Position numbers and translations under genes: made by a program. This document shows positions 1 through 63,868 of a stretch of 64,000 nt of DNA, in pieces; within the stretch, counting starts at the first letter, position 1; each line of letters begins with the position of its first letter. The notes beneath the pieces are model-generated. The model was given only the letters and a program-made list of their open reading frames with translations. It was not told where the DNA came from and searched no databases. This DNA comes from Clostridia bacterium (GTDB lineage: Bacteria; Bacillota; Clostridia; Oscillospirales; CAG-272), in assembly GCA_017453245.1 (NCBI GenBank), contig JAFTKM010000008.1:19017-83016 (forward strand), given 5' to 3'.

Positions 1-831
1 CATAAGAGCGCGCACCTTAGCGGCGGTAATAAGCGCCTGAGCGGCACGGGGAGACGCGCCGTACTTGATGTACTTGGATGCGGTCGCGGACGCGCCGTCG
101 AGCTCGGGGTGAGTCGCGGAAACGAGATTTACTGCATACTCAAGCACGTCATCGATAACGGGAACACCGGATGCGAGCTGACGCATACCGAGTATGGTCT
201 CGCCGTCCATAACCGTCTCTGCGGTCTCAAGCATAGTAGCCTGAGTCATGGTAACTATATTCTTGAGCTCCTCGGTGCCGGGGAACTTCATAATAAGCTT
301 GAACATAAATCTGTCCATCTGAGCCTCGGGAAGCGGATAGGTACCGTCCTGCTCGATGGGGTTCTCGGTCGCCATTACAAAGAAGGGCTCGGCGATCGCG
401 TGAGTAGCTCTGCCGATGGTAACCTTGTGCTCCTGCATTACCTCAAGCATTGCGGACTGAGTCTTGGGAGTAGCTCTGTTGATCTCGTCTGCAAGAACGA
501 GGTTTGCAAAGATGGGGCCTCTGCGGAATACGGTACGCATATTGCCGTCCTTGTCCTTCTGAATGATGTTGGTACCCGTAACGTCGGAGGGCATAAGGTC
601 GGGGGTAAACTGAATTCTCGAGAAAGGAAGGCCAAGGGTACGGCTGAGAGAACGGACAAGTCTGGTCTTACCTACGCCGGGTACGCCCTCAAGAAGCACG
701 TTTCCGCCCGAGATAATGGCGATGATAATATTCTCGATAACCTCCTCGTTACCGACGACGTCCTTTGCGAGCTCTGCCTTAATACTCGCAATTCTGGCGC
801 TGAAGCTTTTTGCATTTTCCATATTTTCCAT
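1..831 (-). CDS. MoxR-like AAA+ ATPase, first 277 codons; the 3' end runs off the window
   Basis: My own minus-strand translation from the ATG at 831 gives MENMENAKSFSARIASIKAELAKDVVGNEEVIENIIIAIISGGNVLLEGVPGVGKT (Walker A), then VLADEINRATPKTQSAMLEVMQE (Walker B/sensor), then FFVMATENPIEQDGTYPLPEAQMDRF. It is absent from the ORF track because the frame is open at the window edge. The + ORF 109..849 is its antisense shadow. Confidence 0.85.
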   Translation of the reverse strand, partial: MENMENAKSFSARIASIKAELAKDVVGNEEVIENIIIAIISGGNVLLEGVPGVGKTRLVRSLSRTLGLPFSRIQFTPDLMPSDVTGTNIIQKDKDGNMRTVFRRGPIFANLVLADEINRATPKTQSAMLEVMQEHKVTIGRATHAIAEPFFVMATENPIEQDGTYPLPEAQMDRFMFKLIMKFPGTEELKNIVTMTQATMLETAETVMDGETILGMRQLASGVPVIDDVLEYAVNLVSATHPELDGASATASKYIKYGASPRAAQALITAAKVRALM

Positions 832-3154: not shown

Positions 3155-4351
3155 ATGATCAACGACAAGATGTACGCGCTCGGTTCTCAGCGCTCCGAGA
3201 TACGCGAGCTTTTTGAATACGGAAAAAAAAGAAAGGCCGAGATAGGCGAGGAGAACGTATTTGACTTCTCGCTCGGTAACCCGAGTGTCCCCTGCCCCGA
3301 GGAGGTTAACGAGGCAATCGTCTCCCTCGTCAGGAGCGGCAACTCTGTGAGCCTGCACGGCTACACGTCAGCGCAGGGCGATAAGGGTGTGCGCGATGCT
3401 ATCGCCTCGCATATTTCACGGGCTCACGGCTTTGAGGTATCCGGTGACGATCTGTATCTCACGGTTGGCGCGGCGGCGGCTCTTACCTGCTCCCTGACTG
3501 CAACGGTATGCCCCGGCGAGGAGGTCATTCTCCTGGCTCCGTATTTCCCCGAATATAAGGTTTTCGTCGAGAGGACGGGAGCGAGCGTCAAGGTAGTCAA
3601 ATGCACGGAAGGAAGCTTCGAGCCTGACGTTGATGCTATCAGGTCGGCTATCACCGAGAGGACTGCGGCGATCATAGTTAACTCACCGAACAACCCCACC
3701 GGCGCGGTATACTCCGAGAGTAGCATCAAGGCTATCGTAGAGGTCTTGAATGAGAAATCACGCGAGTACGGAAGGGACATATATCTCATAGCGGACGAGC
3801 CGTACAGAGAGCTTGTCTACGACGGTGTGTACGTGCCGTTTATTCCTAAGTATTACGATAATACTATCGTCTGCTATTCGTACAGTAAATCGCTCTCTCT
3901 CCCGGGCGAGAGAATAGGCTATTGCCTTGTCAGCCCGAGAGCACATGAGCACCTGAGGGTATACCTTGCGATATGCGGAGCGGGACGCGCGCTCGGTTAC
4001 GTTTGCGCACCGTCACTTCTGCAAAAAGCGATACCTTACTGCATAGGACTTTACTCAGATTTGAGCGTTTATGATAAAAATAGACAACTTTTGTTGACAA
4101 ATCTTACCGAATACGGTTTTGAAGTGGTAAAGCCGCAAGGAGCGTTCTATTTATTTATCAAGGCTCCGGATGGCAATTCGAAGGCTTTCTCCGAGGAGGC
4201 TAAGAAGCATGAGCTACTTATAGTCGCGAGCGACAGCTTCGGCTACTCGGGATACGCCAGAATATCCTACTGCGTAAAAACCGAACAGATAGAAAAGGCC
4301 CTCCCCGCCTTCCGCGCTTTGGCGGAGCGCTTAGGGCTTTGCGGAGAATAA
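3155..4351 (+). CDS. PLP-dependent class I/II aminotransferase (aspartate/aromatic type)
   Basis: 398 aa. Motifs NPSVPCP, NSPNNPTG and YSYSKSLSLPGERIGY (PLP-lysine motif). GGAGG RBS. First gene of the aromatic cluster. Confidence 0.85.
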   Translation: MINDKMYALGSQRSEIRELFEYGKKRKAEIGEENVFDFSLGNPSVPCPEEVNEAIVSLVRSGNSVSLHGYTSAQGDKGVRDAIASHISRAHGFEVSGDDLYLTVGAAAALTCSLTATVCPGEEVILLAPYFPEYKVFVERTGASVKVVKCTEGSFEPDVDAIRSAITERTAAIIVNSPNNPTGAVYSESSIKAIVEVLNEKSREYGRDIYLIADEPYRELVYDGVYVPFIPKYYDNTIVCYSYSKSLSLPGERIGYCLVSPRAHEHLRVYLAICGAGRALGYVCAPSLLQKAIPYCIGLYSDLSVYDKNRQLLLTNLTEYGFEVVKPQGAFYLFIKAPDGNSKAFSEEAKKHELLIVASDSFGYSGYARISYCVKTEQIEKALPAFRALAERLGLCGE

Positions 4352-4354
4352 ATA

Positions 4355-5443
4355 ATGAAGAATAAGCTGACAGTTGCAAGAGAAAAAATCAATGAGATAG
4401 ACCGCGAGATGGCAAAGCTCTTTGTCGAGAGGCTTAAGGCATCCGAGCTCGTTGCGGAATACAAGCAGGAGCACGGTCTTGAAATACTCGACCCGATAAG
4501 AGAGGCGGAGGTAATAAGACGCAATTCCGAGGCGGTCGAAAACGATGTTTACAGAGAATATTACGTCAACTTCCAGAAGAATACGATGTCACTCTCGAGA
4601 GCGTATCAGGCAAGACTCCTTGGGGGAATGAAGGTAGCTTACTCAGGTACTGAGGGAGCGTATGCGCACCTCGCCGCAAAGAAGCTCTTCCCTACCTCTG
4701 AGGCAATAGGATACGGCAGCTTTGACGAAGCGTATGCCGCTGTGGAAACGGGTGAATGTGACGTCGCCGTCCTCCCTATTGAAAACAGCTATAACGGAGA
4801 CGTAGGACAGGTGAGCGACCTGATGTTCTCGGGCCCCTTGTACGTCAATACCGTGACAGAGCTGGCAATATCTCACGACCTACTCGCGCCTCGTGGTACA
4901 AAGATCGAGGATATCAAAACGGTCATCAGCCATCCTCAGGCTCTCGGACAATGTCACGGCTACATCGTCGGGCACGGATACTCGGAGATGGAGTTTGCGA
5001 ATACCGCTCTCGCGGCAAAATACGTTTCGGAATGCACAGACGGAAAGACGGCGGCGATAGCGAGCGCGGAGGCGGCAGAGATATTCGGCCTTGAGGTGCT
5101 AGCGACAAATATAAACGAGTCGAGAAGCAATACCACGAGATTTGCGGTATTCTCGCGCTCGGAAAACAAGAATTCCATCACCGATAAGAGAGTGCATACG
5201 ATACTTCTCTTCACCGTGCGCCACGAGGCGGGAGCGCTTGCTAAGGCGCTTGAAGTTATCGCAAAATACGGCTTCAATATGGGCGCGCTTCGCTCACGTC
5301 CGATGAAGGAGCTGCTCTGGCAGTATTACTTCTACGTTGAAGCGGAGGGTAACCTGGACAGCGAGGACGGAAGAAAAATGATGGAGGAGCTCAAGGCTTA
5401 CTGTGACAGACTCAAGACCGTAGGCTCGTATACTGTAATCTGA
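4355..5443 (+). CDS. pheA: Bifunctional chorismate mutase / prephenate dehydratase
   Basis: N-terminal CM_2-like helix (REKINEIDREMAKLFVERLKASELVAEYK). PDT domain (VAYSGTEGAYAH, IENSYNGDV) and a C-terminal ACT-like region (TRFAVF...TILLF). Confidence 0.85.
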   Translation: MKNKLTVAREKINEIDREMAKLFVERLKASELVAEYKQEHGLEILDPIREAEVIRRNSEAVENDVYREYYVNFQKNTMSLSRAYQARLLGGMKVAYSGTEGAYAHLAAKKLFPTSEAIGYGSFDEAYAAVETGECDVAVLPIENSYNGDVGQVSDLMFSGPLYVNTVTELAISHDLLAPRGTKIEDIKTVISHPQALGQCHGYIVGHGYSEMEFANTALAAKYVSECTDGKTAAIASAEAAEIFGLEVLATNINESRSNTTRFAVFSRSENKNSITDKRVHTILLFTVRHEAGALAKALEVIAKYGFNMGALRSRPMKELLWQYYFYVEAEGNLDSEDGRKMMEELKAYCDRLKTVGSYTVI

Positions 5444-43825: not shown

Positions 43826-44990
43826 ACAGGAATCCTTTATTGAAGCTGTCAAGCTCTCCTTTGACAAGGAAGTAATAAAGAAGCTCGTCTTCTCGCGCCC
43901 TAAGGAAAGCGAGATCTCCAAGGTCTCGGCAAGGCTGGTCTTGCACAGAGGCAGGCGCATGCTCGCCTTTGAGTACAGTCTGCCCGGCAACACCGTCTCG
44001 CACAAGAACGTGGGTGAGGGTGAGCTCGAGTCCTTCCTTAGTGAGCTGCTCGGCGAATATTCACAAGCTAACCTTCTGACCACGGCGGGTGACGTCGAGT
44101 GGAAGGTGTCGAAGTCGGGCAAGGAGGCTCTCCTCGGTCAGGACAAGCTAAAGAATAAGCTTGATAGTGAGGCCGTCGGCTTTGAGGCGGCTATCGAGGC
44201 ACTTGACAACAAGAAAAATTACCTGCTTTCGGGCTCGGAGACCTTCCTCATCAAGCTCGGTATCAGCGATAAAAACGGACGCGTGCACGACAAGCGCCAG
44301 GGCAAATTCAGACAGATATGCCGCTTTCTCGAGATAGTGGAGGACGTCTATCACGAGCTCCCGAAGGACGGTGACGTGACCGTATACGACCTCTGCTGCG
44401 GAAAGAGCTACCTGAGCTTTGCGGTCTACTACTACCTCACCGAGAGAAAAGGAAGAAGAGTCAGGATGCTCGGCATCGACCTCAAGCGCGATTGCATCAA
44501 TTGGTGCTCGGAGCTTGCCTCATCGCTCGGCTACGTCGGTATGACCTTTGTCACCGATGACGTAAGAAACACACCTAAGGGTGTTACGCCCGATATGGTT
44601 ATCTCGCTCCACGCGTGCGATATAGCCACGGATATAGTTATCAACCGCGCTATGGAGCTCGGCGCTAAGGTTATACTCTCTACCCCCTGCTGCCACAGAC
44701 ACATTAACGATAAGATATCGGCAGGCGAGCTCTCCTTTGTGACCGACTACCCGCATCTTACAAACAAGCTCGGTGACGTGCTTACCGACGCTATAAGAGT
44801 CGCAAGGCTTGAGGCAGAGGGCTACTCGGTGGCGGCGCTTGAGCTTGTCGACCCCGACGATACACCCAAGAATACTCTCATCAAGGCTATAAAAAAAGGC
44901 TCTCCAAAAGAGGAAAAGAGAGCGAGATACGAGGCAATACTTGACTTTGTCCTCGGTGAGAAAAAGAATGAATACCTAAAGAACATTTGA
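43818..44990 (+). CDS. Class I SAM-dependent methyltransferase (390 aa)
   Basis: VYDLCCGKSYLSF (motif I-like) and VISLHACDIATD. Overlaps the plsY stop. Confidence 0.65.
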   Translation: MTKQESFIEAVKLSFDKEVIKKLVFSRPKESEISKVSARLVLHRGRRMLAFEYSLPGNTVSHKNVGEGELESFLSELLGEYSQANLLTTAGDVEWKVSKSGKEALLGQDKLKNKLDSEAVGFEAAIEALDNKKNYLLSGSETFLIKLGISDKNGRVHDKRQGKFRQICRFLEIVEDVYHELPKDGDVTVYDLCCGKSYLSFAVYYYLTERKGRRVRMLGIDLKRDCINWCSELASSLGYVGMTFVTDDVRNTPKGVTPDMVISLHACDIATDIVINRAMELGAKVILSTPCCHRHINDKISAGELSFVTDYPHLTNKLGDVLTDAIRVARLEAEGYSVAALELVDPDDTPKNTLIKAIKKGSPKEEKRARYEAILDFVLGEKKNEYLKNI

Positions 44991-59798: not shown

Positions 59799-61793
59799 CT
59801 AAATATTAAATTTTAGTTCCCTAATTTTACCCGATTTTTCCGTGACGGTGACCTCTACATTGCCGTCTGTATTTTTCATTTCAACCGACGTAATTACCGA
59901 GTCGGACTTATACGCCTCGATGACGTTTATGAATATCGGGCATTTCTCGGTTGTGCGCTCAAGAAGATATGACACGCTCGAGGTTGCGGGATTGTTAGGT
60001 CCCTTAGCTAGTATCAGCTCCTTGCCTTCTGCCAAGGTGTGGACGTCCATACACCAACCGTCAGCGCGGTATGTGAGCTTGGTCGGGCGGTCGCATCGGT
60101 AGGAATAAGCTTCGCCAAGGTAGACTCCTGCGCCCTTGTCAGAGACCTTGCCGATATACTCAGCCTCCTTCGGTAGCTCTGCCTCCGCATTGATATGCCA
60201 GATCCATTCCTTCTTTAAGTCGTTATCCGATCTTACAGAGAAAACGTCGATGAAATACTTATCGTGCCACGAGATGATGCGGCGCATTGTGACACCCCTG
60301 TATGACTCGTCCGACCACTGCTTGATGGTGAAGGAGTCGAGCATCTCATACTCCTCGGGCGGCAGAGTCTCGGCATCAAGGTAGATATCGTCGGGAGCAC
60401 TCATACGATATTCTCTGATACGGGTATCACAGGGCGCCATATTCTCACCGTCGATAACAACGGTATTATGCGCCAGAGTATTCTTAAAATAACCGTAATG
60501 AAGAGGCGAACCGTAGCCCGAAGCGGTGCCAAAATCCATACACGCCCCCGCGCCAAAGGCGTCAAAGGAGAGAGCCAAGCGGTCATAGTGATCGTGCTCA
60601 CCGCCATAGGGTGTCGCCTTAAATAAGAGGGTTCTGCCCTCGGTTCCGTGAAGGATAGCGAGACCTGATCCACGCTCGGAAAGATAGTTTTCAAGCGGTA
60701 TTTCGTGACGCGCGGGAAGGTTATCTACGCCATAGATCAGCGCGTCAAGATGTCCCCTCTTACCTTCTCTGTCACTTAAGTAAAGCAGAGCAAGTATTTC
60801 GTCCGTGCCAAATACCGAGTAGGCAAATTCGTATATGTCCGAATAGCCCGAGAGTGAGCCGTGACCGTCGTTTAGCCTTGCGGTATTCGAGTCGTTCACA
60901 CGGAGCTTGAGAGGCAGGATCAAGGCCTTATAGAGCTTGTCGCGGTAGTGCGGATCTCCGAAAAGGCTATGCTCTGTGTTCTTCGCCATCTTCTCAAAGG
61001 TCATAAACCACCTGAGAGCATAGAGATGGTAGGATACCGAGCACTCAAACCACAAATTATCCTCGAGGTAGGCGTGGTCTATCTGGTATTTGAGACCGTA
61101 CTTGGTATCGGTGGCAAAGCGCACAAGCTCCCCATCTTCGATGGCAAGACCTATCGCGGCGATCGACGTGCAGATAGCGACCTCGTGGTTGTGTAGCTGA
61201 GGGGTAAGATACTTCCTCTGATGCTCTGCCGCGGGGCGGAACAGCTCGTTCTCGATAATGGTACGTTCCTCGTCTGTGAAGCTGAATTTGATAAGCGAAT
61301 ATGCGGGAGCGAGATTGCAGATTGGCTCGCAATCGGTAAGCACCTGAGCGGCAAATCTGCCCGGGTGATTATACGGAATGCCTCCGTTAACCTCATAGTT
61401 TTTGTAGTTTTCGGCGTAGCCGAGTATTATTGTCTTTGCGACAGATAAGAAGTCCTCCCTGCCCGTCGCAACATAGCCTATGGCAAGCTTATATGCGGCA
61501 GAGGTTGTCATAGTGAGGACCGTCTCCCACCACGCGCCAAGGTATGGCTCGCCCGTCTGCACACCTCCGCACTCGGGGCAGACAAAGCGCTCGTTGTCAT
61601 TATAGTTGAAGCTAAGGCGCGTGCCGCACTCGGGACAGGTGAAATAGTGATACCACGTGGCAAGACCTGTCTTTTGTATATAGAGCTTTCGGCGGACGTT
61701 GCTTGTGCTATTCTCGATCTTTGTTATATATTCGGGGTGATTTTCCACCCTTTTTCTTATTATTTCGATGTCTCTTTCGGAAAATATCATCAT
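59799..61793 (-). CDS. Heparinase II/III-like (alginate-lyase-superfamily) protein with an N-terminal zinc-ribbon
   Basis: 664 aa. CPECGTRLSF...CPECGG, SVSYHLYALRWF, GGEHDHYDRLALSF, KNTLAHNTVVIDGENM. No signal peptide. Confidence 0.7.
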   Translation of the reverse strand: MMIFSERDIEIIRKRVENHPEYITKIENSTSNVRRKLYIQKTGLATWYHYFTCPECGTRLSFNYNDNERFVCPECGGVQTGEPYLGAWWETVLTMTTSAAYKLAIGYVATGREDFLSVAKTIILGYAENYKNYEVNGGIPYNHPGRFAAQVLTDCEPICNLAPAYSLIKFSFTDEERTIIENELFRPAAEHQRKYLTPQLHNHEVAICTSIAAIGLAIEDGELVRFATDTKYGLKYQIDHAYLEDNLWFECSVSYHLYALRWFMTFEKMAKNTEHSLFGDPHYRDKLYKALILPLKLRVNDSNTARLNDGHGSLSGYSDIYEFAYSVFGTDEILALLYLSDREGKRGHLDALIYGVDNLPARHEIPLENYLSERGSGLAILHGTEGRTLLFKATPYGGEHDHYDRLALSFDAFGAGACMDFGTASGYGSPLHYGYFKNTLAHNTVVIDGENMAPCDTRIREYRMSAPDDIYLDAETLPPEEYEMLDSFTIKQWSDESYRGVTMRRIISWHDKYFIDVFSVRSDNDLKKEWIWHINAEAELPKEAEYIGKVSDKGAGVYLGEAYSYRCDRPTKLTYRADGWCMDVHTLAEGKELILAKGPNNPATSSVSYLLERTTEKCPIFINVIEAYKSDSVITSVEMKNTDGNVEVTVTEKSGKIRELKFNI

Positions 61794-61824
61794 ATTTACC
61801 TCGCGGCTGGTTGATTTCGTCTCT

Positions 61825-61853
61825 ATTTTAGCATATTAAAGCGAAGTTGTAAA
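61825..61853 (-). promoter_or_regulatory. Candidate promoter of the heparinase-like gene
   Basis: On the minus strand: TTTACA (61848-61853), 17-nt spacer, TGcTAAAAT (-10 at 61825-61830). Confidence 0.45.
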
Positions 61854-61858
61854 GTAGA

Positions 61859-62154
61859 GTGACGATGATTCTTTACTCCGTAAAGAGATATATTCGCCCT
61901 GAGGCGAGTGATATGTTGCTTTTCGCAACGTGATATTATTTCGCCGTGCGAAATAGTGATATGCTCGCTACAAGCGAGCGTTAAAAGAAAAAGCAACCAG
62001 CAGGTGACGATGATTCTTTACTCCGTAAAGATCGATATTCGCCTTACGGCGATCGATATGCGCTTCGCGCTCGATATATTGGCTTCGCCAATTCTATATG
62101 TGCTCTCACGAGCACGATAAAAGAAGAAAGCAACCATCTACCGGTTGCTTTTCT
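61859..62154. repeat. Two tandem word-hairpin arrays, each opened by GTGACGATGATT-CTTTACtccGTAAAG; words GTGATAT (array 1) and TCGATAT (array 2)
   Basis: Array 1 spans 61859-61979 and array 2 spans 62004-62116. Each is followed by an AAAAGAAnAAAGCAACC... terminator-like motif. Full parse in the findings. Confidence 0.8.
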
Positions 62155-62160
62155 AATATA

Positions 62161-62197
62161 AAAAAGAACGGTCAGCAGGTGACCGTTCTTAATTTTT
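62161..62197 (-). terminator. Terminator T2 of the rplL pseudo-copy
   Basis: AAGAACGGTCA gcagg TGACCGTTCTT. Same loop and flanks as the true rplL terminator, but a completely different stem. Confidence 0.65.
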
Positions 62198-62208
62198 ACA
62201 GAGTGTGA

Positions 62209-62257
62209 ATTACTTAACTTCAACTTCTGCGCCTGCAGCCCCCGAGTCTGCTGCAGA
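62209..62257 (-). pseudogene. rplL 3'-end fragment F2 (last ~10 codons plus stop plus 3' UTR)
   Basis: 62209-62240 is identical over 32 nt to 62695-62726. It then diverges in a 5-nt patch (CCCGA instead of TTGAG). Confidence 0.85.
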
Positions 62258-62390
62258 TAATCAAGCGAAGCGTATCGGGGAGCTCGCTCACCAGTACGCG
62301 AGCGCAGATTGCTCCGTGGCGGCTCGTCACAGACGAGCATAGGCGCGTAGCGCCAAGGACACGAAGTGGACTTACGCCACATAGGAGTAT
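62256..62390. repeat. Structured ~135-nt element, copy B
   Basis: About 93% identical to 62498-62631 (about 9 differences by eye). Contains perfect triloop hairpins GCTCGTC-aca-GACGAGC and GGCGC-gta-GCGCC, enclosed by GTGGCG/CGCCAC. Confidence 0.85.
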
Positions 62391-62502
62391 CTTCTCAGCC
62401 TCTTCCTTAGAGATGCCTTCCTTGATGGTCTTGGGAGCAGTCGGGCAAGATCCTTAGCATCCTTAAGACCAAGACCGCAAACGTCCTTAACAAGCTTGAT
62501 AA
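62387..62502 (-). pseudogene. rplL internal fragment F1 (codons for IKLVKDV...EAEK), frameshifted
   Basis: 50 nt and then 54 nt are identical to 62744-62793 and 62801-62854. They flank a patch where real ACTCAAC (7 nt) is replaced by TCGGGC (6 nt), shifting the frame by one. Confidence 0.85.
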
Positions 62503-62631
62503 TCAAGCGAAGCGTATCGGGGAACTCGTTCACCAGTACGCGAGCGCAGATTGCTCCGTGGCGGCTCGTCGCAGACGAGCATAGGTGCGTAGCGCCAAGG
62601 ACACAAAGTGGACTTACGCCGCAGGGAGCAT
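62498..62631. repeat. Structured ~135-nt element, copy A
   Basis: See copy B. Lies between the true rplL terminator and fragment F1. Confidence 0.85.
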
Positions 62632-62650
62632 AACGGGGATTTTAAAAGAA

Positions 62651-62690
62651 AAAAGCAACCAGCAGGTGGTTGCTTTCTTCTTTATAGAGA
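62651..62690 (-). terminator. rplL intrinsic terminator T1
   Basis: On the minus strand: AAAGCAACCA cctgc TGGTTGCTTTTTTCTTTT. Confidence 0.75.
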
Positions 62691-62695
62691 TGAAA

Positions 62696-63067
62696 TTACT
62701 TAACTTCAACTTCTGCGCCTGCAGCCTTGAGGTCTGCAGCGAGCTTCTCAGCCTCTTCCTTAGAGATGCCTTCCTTGATGGTCTTGGGAGCAGACTCAAC
62801 AAGATCCTTAGCATCCTTAAGACCAAGACCGCAAACGTCCTTAACAAGCTTGATAACGTTAAGCTTGGATGCGCCTGCGCTGGTAAGAACAACGTCAAAC
62901 TCGGTCTTCTCCTCAACAACGGGAGCTGCTGCTGCAACTGCGCCAACTGCTGCTACGGGAGCTGCGGATACACCGAACTCCTCCTCAAGAGCCTTAACGA
63001 GATCAGCAAGTTCAAGAATAGTAAGACCCTTTACAAGGTCAAGAATCTGGGTAGACTTTTCGTTCAT
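62696..63067 (-). CDS. rplL: 50S ribosomal protein L7/L12
   Basis: [36 protein letters not shown]...[56 protein letters not shown]. Confidence 0.95.
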
Positions 63068-63652: not shown

Positions 63653-63835
63653 TTTGTTTCCACCTCCATAAAAATTTCAAATAAAAAATCCTTTCCGGGA
63701 GAAACACACAACTCTCCGAGAAAGGACAACCAAAATGAACGCAACGGTACTCCATCGCGTAAAATTATTGAATTTGTCTCACCTCGGCAGGAAAGCTATG
63801 CGCTTTTACCGGAACCTGCTGTCTTAGGATACCTA
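63653..63835 (-). ncRNA. rplJ 5' leader, candidate L10-leader-type attenuator
   Basis: ~180-nt UTR between the promoter and the ATG. Imperfect stem CCTTTCTCGGAGA / TCTCCCGGAAAGG (63690-63726) followed by ATTTTTTATTT on the minus strand. Autoregulatory L10 leaders are well known in Firmicutes. The structure has not been checked against a covariance model. Confidence 0.4.
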
Positions 63836-63839
63836 TGGT

Positions 63840-63868
63840 ATTATACACGAAGTGAAGTCACTTGTCAA
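63840..63868 (-). promoter_or_regulatory. Consensus sigma-A promoter of rplJL
   Basis: On the minus strand: TTGACA (63863-63868), 17-nt spacer, TATAAT (63840-63845). Confidence 0.7.

Follow-up and report, generated by a model that had tools for sequence, protein, structure and literature searches.

Why does a partial copy of a ribosomal protein gene differ from that gene only at two short sites that are complementary to each other? The question is raised by the region downstream of rplL, the gene for ribosomal protein L7/L12, in a 64,000-nt stretch of DNA from Clostridia bacterium (assembly GCA_017453245.1, contig JAFTKM010000008.1, positions 19,017 to 83,016 of the forward strand), referred to below as the window. 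A preliminary description ascribed these changes, and similar ones in two terminators (T1 and T2) and in nearby hairpin arrays, either to very strong structural selection combined with gene conversion of the flanks, or to a mechanism that rewrites one hairpin arm and copies it onto the other. The account that we favour, with a probability of about 0.55, is one of concerted evolution, in which partial duplication, gene conversion, short islands that segregate among strains, a template switch and the divergence of T1 and T2 would each have had a part.

Downstream of rplL, towards lower coordinates, lie T1, a structured element (E2), a 112-nt part of the copy (designated rplL'), a second such element (E1), a 42-nt part of the copy, and T2. 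The gene and the parts of its copy are as follows:

62696-63067, minus strand: functional rplL, an open reading frame (ORF) for L7/L12 (123 aa); the identical protein is encoded on 23 contigs, with Ribosomal_L12 Pfam matches
62727-62737 and 62790-62799, no strand assigned: arms of an inverted repeat within the real rplL (5+5 bp, 1-nt bulge)
62391-62502, minus strand: fragment c' of rplL', a copy of 62744-62856, identical except for patch 2
62210-62251, minus strand: fragment a' of rplL', a copy of 62696-62737 including the stop codon, which carries patch 1

The source of the copy is thus the final 162 nt of rplL (62696-62856). Outside the patches, the copy and the gene are identical at 143 of 143 aligned bases (62210-62240, 62246-62251, 62391-62440 and 62447-62502). 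On the plus strand, TTGAG has become CCCGA in patch 1 (arm B, 62241-62245), and ACTCAAC has become TCGGGC in patch 2 (arm A, 62441-62446), which shifts the reading frame. The two patches are complementary to each other and both lie within the outermost 5 bp of one helix of the real gene, which is far beyond chance; two such 5-nt patches cannot be a coincidence, and their linkage is therefore real. The preliminary description had reported both patches and their complementarity correctly. It had also treated the copy as an unbroken sequence of more than 130 nt, which it is not: the 139-nt E1 replaces AGCGAG between the arms, and E2 bounds the fragment.

The arms in the real gene, TTGAGGTCTGC (62727-62737) and GCAGACTCAA (62790-62799), do form an inverted repeat with one bulge, the strings and coordinates being as first reported. 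Taken alone, this repeat is unremarkable. No other inverted repeat of the same class occurs in rplL, and 7% of composition-matched shuffles contain one, so that the helix of the real gene says little by itself.

In order to place the copy in a wider context, 26 loci (L001-L026) were compared. An exact search for the L7/L12 protein returned 23 metagenome contigs and contigs of metagenome-assembled genomes. A search of a protein database with the ORFs that read through E into the copy revealed 13 further such ORFs, and nine contigs (L018-L026), which correspond to eight of these ORFs and come from several related species of uncultured Ruminococcus, were examined. The region downstream of the gene was arranged as (i) rplL followed directly by T2 (L002, L005-L007 and L009), (ii) rplL-T1-array-half T1 (L003, L008 and L010), (iii) rplL-T2-E-rplL'-T1 (L004), or (iv) the window's own arrangement (L001). 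The order rplL-T1-(arrays)-E-rplL'-T2 was present in independent assemblies of several related uncultured Ruminococcus species; since it recurs in this way, the layout is conserved and no peculiarity of this window.

Alignment of all real 3' ends and copies revealed that each copy bears the synonymous substitutions that mark the rplL of its own genome. Such species-specific changes were found in the copies of L018, L020, L021 and L004, and nine of them are common to gene and copy in L018 and L020. This directly supports the conclusion that the copy, including the flanks of the patches, is kept near-identical to the gene by gene conversion, i.e. by concerted evolution, and it accounts for the lack of scattered synonymous changes in the window, which conversion erases. 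That lack, on which the preliminary description had relied, does not extend to the copy of L021, where five scattered point differences from the gene, and no patches, were found. L018 and L020 are 99.4% identical over 1.5 kb, and their copies differ solely in a 42-nt cluster of patch 2 and a further patch, patch 3 (3156-3197), the outcome expected of a single short conversion tract.

The patches are distributed among the loci as follows:

Patch 1 (arm B), sense strand, CTCAA to TCGGG: only the window (L001) and L004
Patch 2 (arm A), sense strand, GTTGAGTC to GCCCGAC: the window, L018 and L019 (three species)
Patch 3, GGCATCTCTAAG to GTACACTC...: L004 and L018, and in part L019 and L024
Unpatched copies: L020, L021, L022, L023 and L026

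The window therefore combines patches 1 and 2, L004 patches 1 and 3, L018 patches 2 and 3, and L019 patch 2 with part of patch 3. Many variants lack an arm altogether, one or both being deleted in L023-L026. The patches are alleles that segregate among strains. It had been claimed that both arms changed together; this does not hold, as the arm-A patch occurs without its partner in L018 and L019, and the arm-B patch in L004. Because the patches occur singly in relatives, special machinery for the rewriting of hairpins is not needed. In the case of patch 3, a source can be proposed: it holds AAGTACACTCT, 11 nt that are situated approximately 40 nt past T2 in strains of the L002 type, which suggests a short templated replacement from nearby DNA.

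MITE-like insertions (miniature inverted-repeat transposable elements; 170-190 nt, with 12-15-nt terminal inverted repeats) were seen just before the stop codon of rplL' in L004 (~4735-4905), L019 (~447-655) and L026 (~333-545). They belong to two different families in different strains.

The same question of paired change arises for the terminator hairpins:

62645-62683, no strand assigned: T1, stem-loop at 62655-62673 (GCAACCA gcagg TGGTTGC), bordered by runs of A and of T
62164-62190, no strand assigned: T2, a paralogue of T1, stem-loop at 62166-62188 (GAACGGTCA gcagg TGACCGTTC)
62127-62151, minus strand: a third, T1-like hairpin (GCAACC ggtagat GGTTGC), at the end of array module B

T1 and T2 are both terminator-like in both directions; a G+C-rich stem-loop followed by a T run was found for T1 on the plus strand, for T2 on both strands and for the third hairpin on the minus strand. 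In strains without the copy, T2 is the terminator directly after rplL. The flanks of T1 and T2 are homologous (taatttcatctct...), and the two hairpins are therefore the terminator paralogues of the duplication. The preliminary description had placed T2 correctly and T1 one base off, and had called their stems completely different. When the hairpins are aligned on their common centre, CACCTGCTG, three of the eight base pairs are the same and five differ. All five differing pairs show a transition on both sides, for which random replacement would give a chance of (1/3)^5 = 0.004.

Over the 26 loci there are just two types of stem, GCAAC/GTTGC and GAACGGT/ACCGTTC, each invariant and with the same centre CACCTGCTG, and the gene and copy positions hold T1/T2, T2/T1, T1/T1 and T2/T2 in different strains. 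T1 and T2 are thus whole hairpins exchanged by recombination after an old compensatory divergence, with no ongoing rewriting of their stems; recombination was the very explanation that the preliminary description had set against its own proposal. Taking all structures of the locus together, 13 of 14 two-sided stem changes are pairs of transitions (4/5 in the patches, 5/5 in T1/T2, 3/3 in the arrays and 1/1 between E1 and E2), which fits stepwise compensation via G-U intermediates.

The element that interrupts the copy is present twice in the window:

62255-62394, plus strand: E1, covariance model R1 163.9 bits, inserted in rplL', where it replaces AGCGAG (62738-62743 of the real gene)
62497-62635, plus strand: E2, R1 154.8 bits, antisense to rplL and joined at its 5' end, through a shared GATAA, to the rplL fragment

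E is 139 nt long in the window and approximately 135 nt in general. One multi-branched fold with 46 pairs accommodates all 14 distinct copies, which are 63-98% identical; 95% of its cells are paired, and two-sided changes were found in 16 of the pairs. This covariation was not reached in any of 500 shuffles, and slid controls gave at most two such pairs. E is therefore a well-supported new family of structured RNA. Counts of G-U pairs are weak evidence of its strand (11 vs 9, an invariant U-G being set aside), and folding energies were used for this reason: in all 14 copies the strand that is plus in the window gave the stabler fold, with a mean advantage of 5.7 kcal/mol. Between E1 and E2 there is a single completed double transition, along with two G-U intermediates and some changes in loops.

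In 61780-62720, no Rfam match to E was obtained even at E <= 10; the one match in this interval was to the Gut-1 motif, below threshold and outside E. At the gathering score, the only match in the whole window was the L10 leader, behind which rplJ and rplL lie on the minus strand. This leader (63674-63846, minus strand; 45.7 bits against a gathering score of 44) is expected for the operon.

Besides the window, E was found in L011, L012, L013, L015, L016, L017 and L018-L026. Copies within a genome are 76-86% identical; they lie, in either orientation, near gap, groES, tdk, rny/ymdB and a tRNA, most of them flanked by word-hairpin arrays. No protein neighbour common to the copies and no transposase was found beside them, and none of the copies elsewhere, among the loci compared, carries a fragment of a neighbouring gene. 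Scans of genomes and metagenomes with the E core gave just four and three loci, respectively, none of them beside rplL; a viral contig scan did not detect the core, a phage collection gave rplL-like matches only, and a plasmid collection gave no match. A reading of E as an IS200/IS605-derived element or as a guide (omega) RNA was rejected: it has no Rfam match, its neighbours include no transposase, there is no nuclease gene nearby, and a 5' guide would be directed against an essential gene of the cell itself. In L015 (3300-3610), E occupies the apical portion of a unit belonging to another tandem repeat of ~65 nt (acaccgtgcc...ctttgacc), the ends of which pair as TTTGACC/GGTCAAA.

Beyond T2, still towards lower coordinates, the third T1-like hairpin is followed by two array modules:

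61859-62126, plus strand: two tandem word-hairpin array modules, Gut-1-like, with the words GTGATAT and TCGATAT, each ending in half a T1 hairpin

Each array has its own word of 6-8 nt, and a unit (22-26 nt) consists of this word and a 15-19-nt hairpin closed by a U-G pair from the flanking words. The stems vary between units and stay perfectly paired, and the two modules of the window changed their word in all units together. Between the orthologous arrays of the window and of L003, the stems show three double transitions and a single change of a terminal pair; several loop changes were also seen. The arrays had been said to behave in the same way as the copy; this stands as regards the paired changes of stems, and only in the sense of ordinary covariation in a structured RNA. 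Against the Gut-1 model of Rfam (RF01706; gathering score 50), the window array scores 41.6 bits (61885-61966), which is below threshold, and the homologous locus L023 has a bona fide match of 66.4 bits (649-723, minus strand), on the same strand as E. A literature search on Gut-1 gave no returns.

The array modules are bounded by half terminator hairpins broken exactly in the conserved centre CAGCAGGTG (61993-62006 in the window; ~4540-4565 in L003), as would be expected if recombination took place at this centre.

The manner in which E became joined to rplL' can be considered from the junctions. On the plus strand, E always starts with (G/C)ATAA, normally in the word GTGATAA or ATGATAA, and rplL at the junction reads TTGATAA; from the closeness of these words we infer that the joining was likely mediated by microhomology. 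Variants of the junction were found at three sites with a common ATCAAG/TTGAT microhomology. In L023 and L026, E lies at the second ATCAAG site with rplL' on both flanks, and the junction of L024 is at that second site; the left junction of L025 is exactly that of E1 in the window.

Palindromes were also seen near these junctions. The junction of the rplL fragment and E2 (62493-62507) is a near-perfect 15-nt palindrome, GCTTGATAATCAAGC. Two CTGCAG (PstI-type) palindromes flank arm B both in the gene (62719-62742) and in the copy (62233-62256); in the copy they are lengthened at the E1 junction into a perfect hairpin of 7 bp, the loop of which contains patch 1.

How, then, did patches 1 and 2 come to match each other? 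Their 5-nt blocks mirror each other, with the register off by 1-2 nt. Read without gaps, the pair comprises four double transitions and one double transversion. In a gapped reading, taking L004 and the window together, arm B has lost its bulged C and AA:TT has become GGG:CCC. GCAGACTC / AGCAGACTC (8-9 nt) has become the exact complement of the unpatched arm A, GAGTCTGC. The changes are clustered and limited to the arm of a pre-existing imperfect inverted repeat, as in quasi-palindrome mutation. A one-off template switch between the arms may account for the match. With modest confidence, we favour for patches 1 and 2 a one-off templated event, followed by reshuffling driven by gene conversion.

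Several observations weigh against this reading. A donor of at least 9 nt for patches 1 and 2 was not found in the window or the 26 loci (k-mers of 7-9 nt). The patched arms pair over 5 bp and 4 bp separated by a 2-nt bulge and are not exact reverse complements; because they are not a perfect mirror, a template switch would need a hypothetical intermediate allele. Since patch 2 occurs in three species and patch 1 in one, patch 1 would have been lost by conversion elsewhere, or would represent a later, compensating event. Islands of 5-12 nt between perfectly converted blocks of 50 nt are unusual for conversion tracts. Finally, as four of the five patched pairs are double transitions, stepwise selection accounts for the pair at least as well as one act of copying would, if not better. 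The sole short match to patches 1 and 2 is the 6-mer TCGGGG inside E; donor matches of 12-13 nt in L012 and at window position 44112 were rejected, as they lie in unrelated coding contexts with dissimilar flanks.

Stepwise selection would act if a plus-strand antisense rplL-E transcript ending at T1, or a sense transcript reading through the locus, needs the A/B helix, so that the second patch compensated for the first via G-U intermediates. The double transitions agree with this, as does the similar evolution of E, T1/T2 and the arrays (E2 and E1 displaying both G-U intermediates and a completed double transition), the greater stability of E on the plus strand and the persistence of the E-rplL' arrangement across species. 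Such selection requires a functional helix, yet the helix is not kept in the homologues: it is broken in L004, L018 and L019, where a single arm is patched, and deleted in one or both arms in L023-L026, while neither arm is patched in L020-L022. The minimum-energy fold of the plus strand does not use the A/B helix, a promoter scan did not find a convincing plus-strand promoter between T2 and the copy, and the helix of the real gene is at the level of chance. We therefore consider selection on this helix a rather doubtful cause of the patch pair. A locus-specific process that rewrites one arm and copies the change onto the other, in the copy, terminators and arrays alike, is quite improbable. 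It would explain why neighbouring stems of an array differ and yet are perfectly paired while the linker words stay constant, why hairpin H1 of L024 compared with that of L003 displays a symmetric apical replacement, and why the break points of the modules fall precisely within the conserved centre of the T hairpins. Such a process should not leave single-arm patches, or T1 and T2 stems that are invariant over all sampled loci and species, or the excess of transition pairs, which random rewriting would not produce; moreover, in none of ten annotated loci was a gene for a reverse transcriptase, a transposase or a recombinase present within 4 kb.

Genomic islands integrate into tRNA genes by displacing the gene end, and an integrative element could likewise have brought a replacement 3' end of rplL, a terminator and E into the site GTTATC^AAGC, the displaced 3' end then being the copy. 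The strains with rplL followed by T2 (L002, L005-L007 and L009) do resemble empty sites, T1-E is flanked by direct repeats of the 3' end of the gene, and (AA)CGTTAT, as at the rplL site, is retained to the left of E. The empty-site pattern would result equally well from a deletion between the direct repeats of 162 nt, however, and the supposed element would span only 200-400 bp without an integrase. Given also the opposite arrangement of the terminators in L004 and L025, and the dispersal of E as a family (63-98% identical) whose copies elsewhere are not accompanied by gene fragments, we regard this origin as unlikely. That a metagenome assembler joined T1-type and T2-type haplotypes in tandem is extremely improbable: both haplotypes exist separately in the population and the repeats (130-160 nt) are near the k-mer size, but the same E/rplL' junction occurs in more than 10 independent assemblies from different samples, assemblers and several species, each with its own substitutions.

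The two explanations offered in the preliminary description therefore fare differently. Structural selection with gene conversion of the flanks was largely right, in that the changes are concentrated in arms, pairing is kept (in the patches, T1/T2, E1/E2 and arrays) and the copies track their own gene; it is at odds with the fate of the A/B helix in relatives. As for the rewriting mechanism, T1/T2, E and the arrays can be explained without it, and in the case of the patch pair it is unproven.

Returning to concerted evolution, the following order of events may be proposed, on the basis of sequence comparison. The comparison itself shows the duplication, the concerted evolution, the distribution of the patches, the structure of E and the invariance of the terminators, whereas the microhomology origin, the template switch and the sequence of events are inferred. 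The region past rplL is a recombination-prone cluster of E, Gut-1-type arrays and small inverted-repeat insertions, in which an old partial tandem duplication put a second rplL end (162 nt), with its terminator, behind an E element. The adjacent real gene repeatedly overwrites rplL' by gene conversion, so that point divergence is erased and only short, dense, multi-nucleotide islands survive to segregate as alleles. The patch 3 island was seemingly copied from nearby DNA. In the case of patches 1 and 2, a single event, in all likelihood a template switch within the molecule at the quasi-palindrome, would have made one arm of a chance inverted repeat match the other, and later conversion tracts would have split the pair in some lineages. 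T1 and T2 diverged by compensatory double transitions, selected for a working hairpin, and are now shuffled whole by recombination.

These processes have known counterparts. As in the concerted evolution of tandem paralogues, the copy is closest to the gene of its own genome and conversion tracts erase divergence; here, unlike there, the copy is a non-coding, 162-nt gene tail, and three very short, dense islands escape conversion. Short template-switch mutation at quasi-palindromes is described by the Ripley model. The patch pair resembles it in that an imperfect inverted repeat has clustered changes in its arms, which are left complementary, and in the removal of the bulge of arm B, and differs in that the arms are not exact reverse complements, no donor of more than 6 nt was identified and the changes are mostly transitions. 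There is published precedent for hairpins created by template switching (Loytynoja & Goldman 2017, PMC5453318; Monttinen & Loytynoja 2022, PMC8794818). The stems of T1/T2, E and the arrays follow the compensatory evolution of RNA helices that covariation analysis exploits and that intrinsic terminators display, keeping Watson-Crick pairing by two-sided transitions with G-U intermediates. Loops usually evolve faster than stems; in T1/T2 this is reversed, as the 9-nt centre is perfectly conserved while five of eight stem pairs have changed.

Diversity-generating retroelements likewise have the 3' end of a gene repeated in near-identical form a short way downstream of it; here, in contrast, the gene encodes a ribosomal protein. 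A retroelement of this kind was rejected: the changes of CTCAA to TCGGG also affect C and T in either reading direction and are not adenine-specific. No reverse transcriptase Pfam family was detected within 4 kb in the ten annotated loci. The arrays share with the Gut-1 RNA motif the variable-stem hairpins separated by GUGAAAU-like words, and differ in the word of the window (GUGAUAU), in being bounded by half terminators and in their association with E. TIGR arrays have two 8-12-nt spacers and box C/D flanks, and lie beside a Nop-domain Tas protein (PMC12045711); a TIGR stem-loop array was rejected, given the units of 22-26 nt and the absence of a Tas-like neighbour protein. As for E, the ERIC/IRU repeats of enterobacteria are structured, intergenic, dispersed and multi-copy. 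E (~135 nt) is likewise intergenic, lies near highly expressed genes in both orientations and keeps its structure among its multiple copies; unlike those repeats, it is multi-branched rather than a long imperfect palindrome, shows 76-86% identity within a genome and resides in Ruminococcus.

A more speculative and unlikely reading is that E and the antisense rplL fragment form a natural chimeric antisense RNA, in which E would be a conserved structured handle fused to a guide of ~160 nt to the L7/L12 mRNA kept matched by conversion, and the patches would be mismatches that are either tolerated or programmed. In a broader form of this reading, E and the Gut-1 arrays would be one RNA system, the stems of which are actively diversified with pairing kept, and the words of which serve as recombination points that capture fragments of host genes. 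The outcome of the promoter scan and the frequent truncation of rplL' in relatives weigh against the antisense reading.

The compensatory pattern thus illustrates known processes cleanly in a natural setting: ordinary divergence can be masked by gene conversion, with only structure-linked islands left visible, and terminator paralogues can diverge wholly by double transitions. More useful than this pattern is E itself, a structured RNA of gut and rumen Ruminococcus that is physically linked to the still unexplained Gut-1 motif. The many natural rearrangement variants at the E locus provide a handle on the nature and spread of Gut-1-type arrays.

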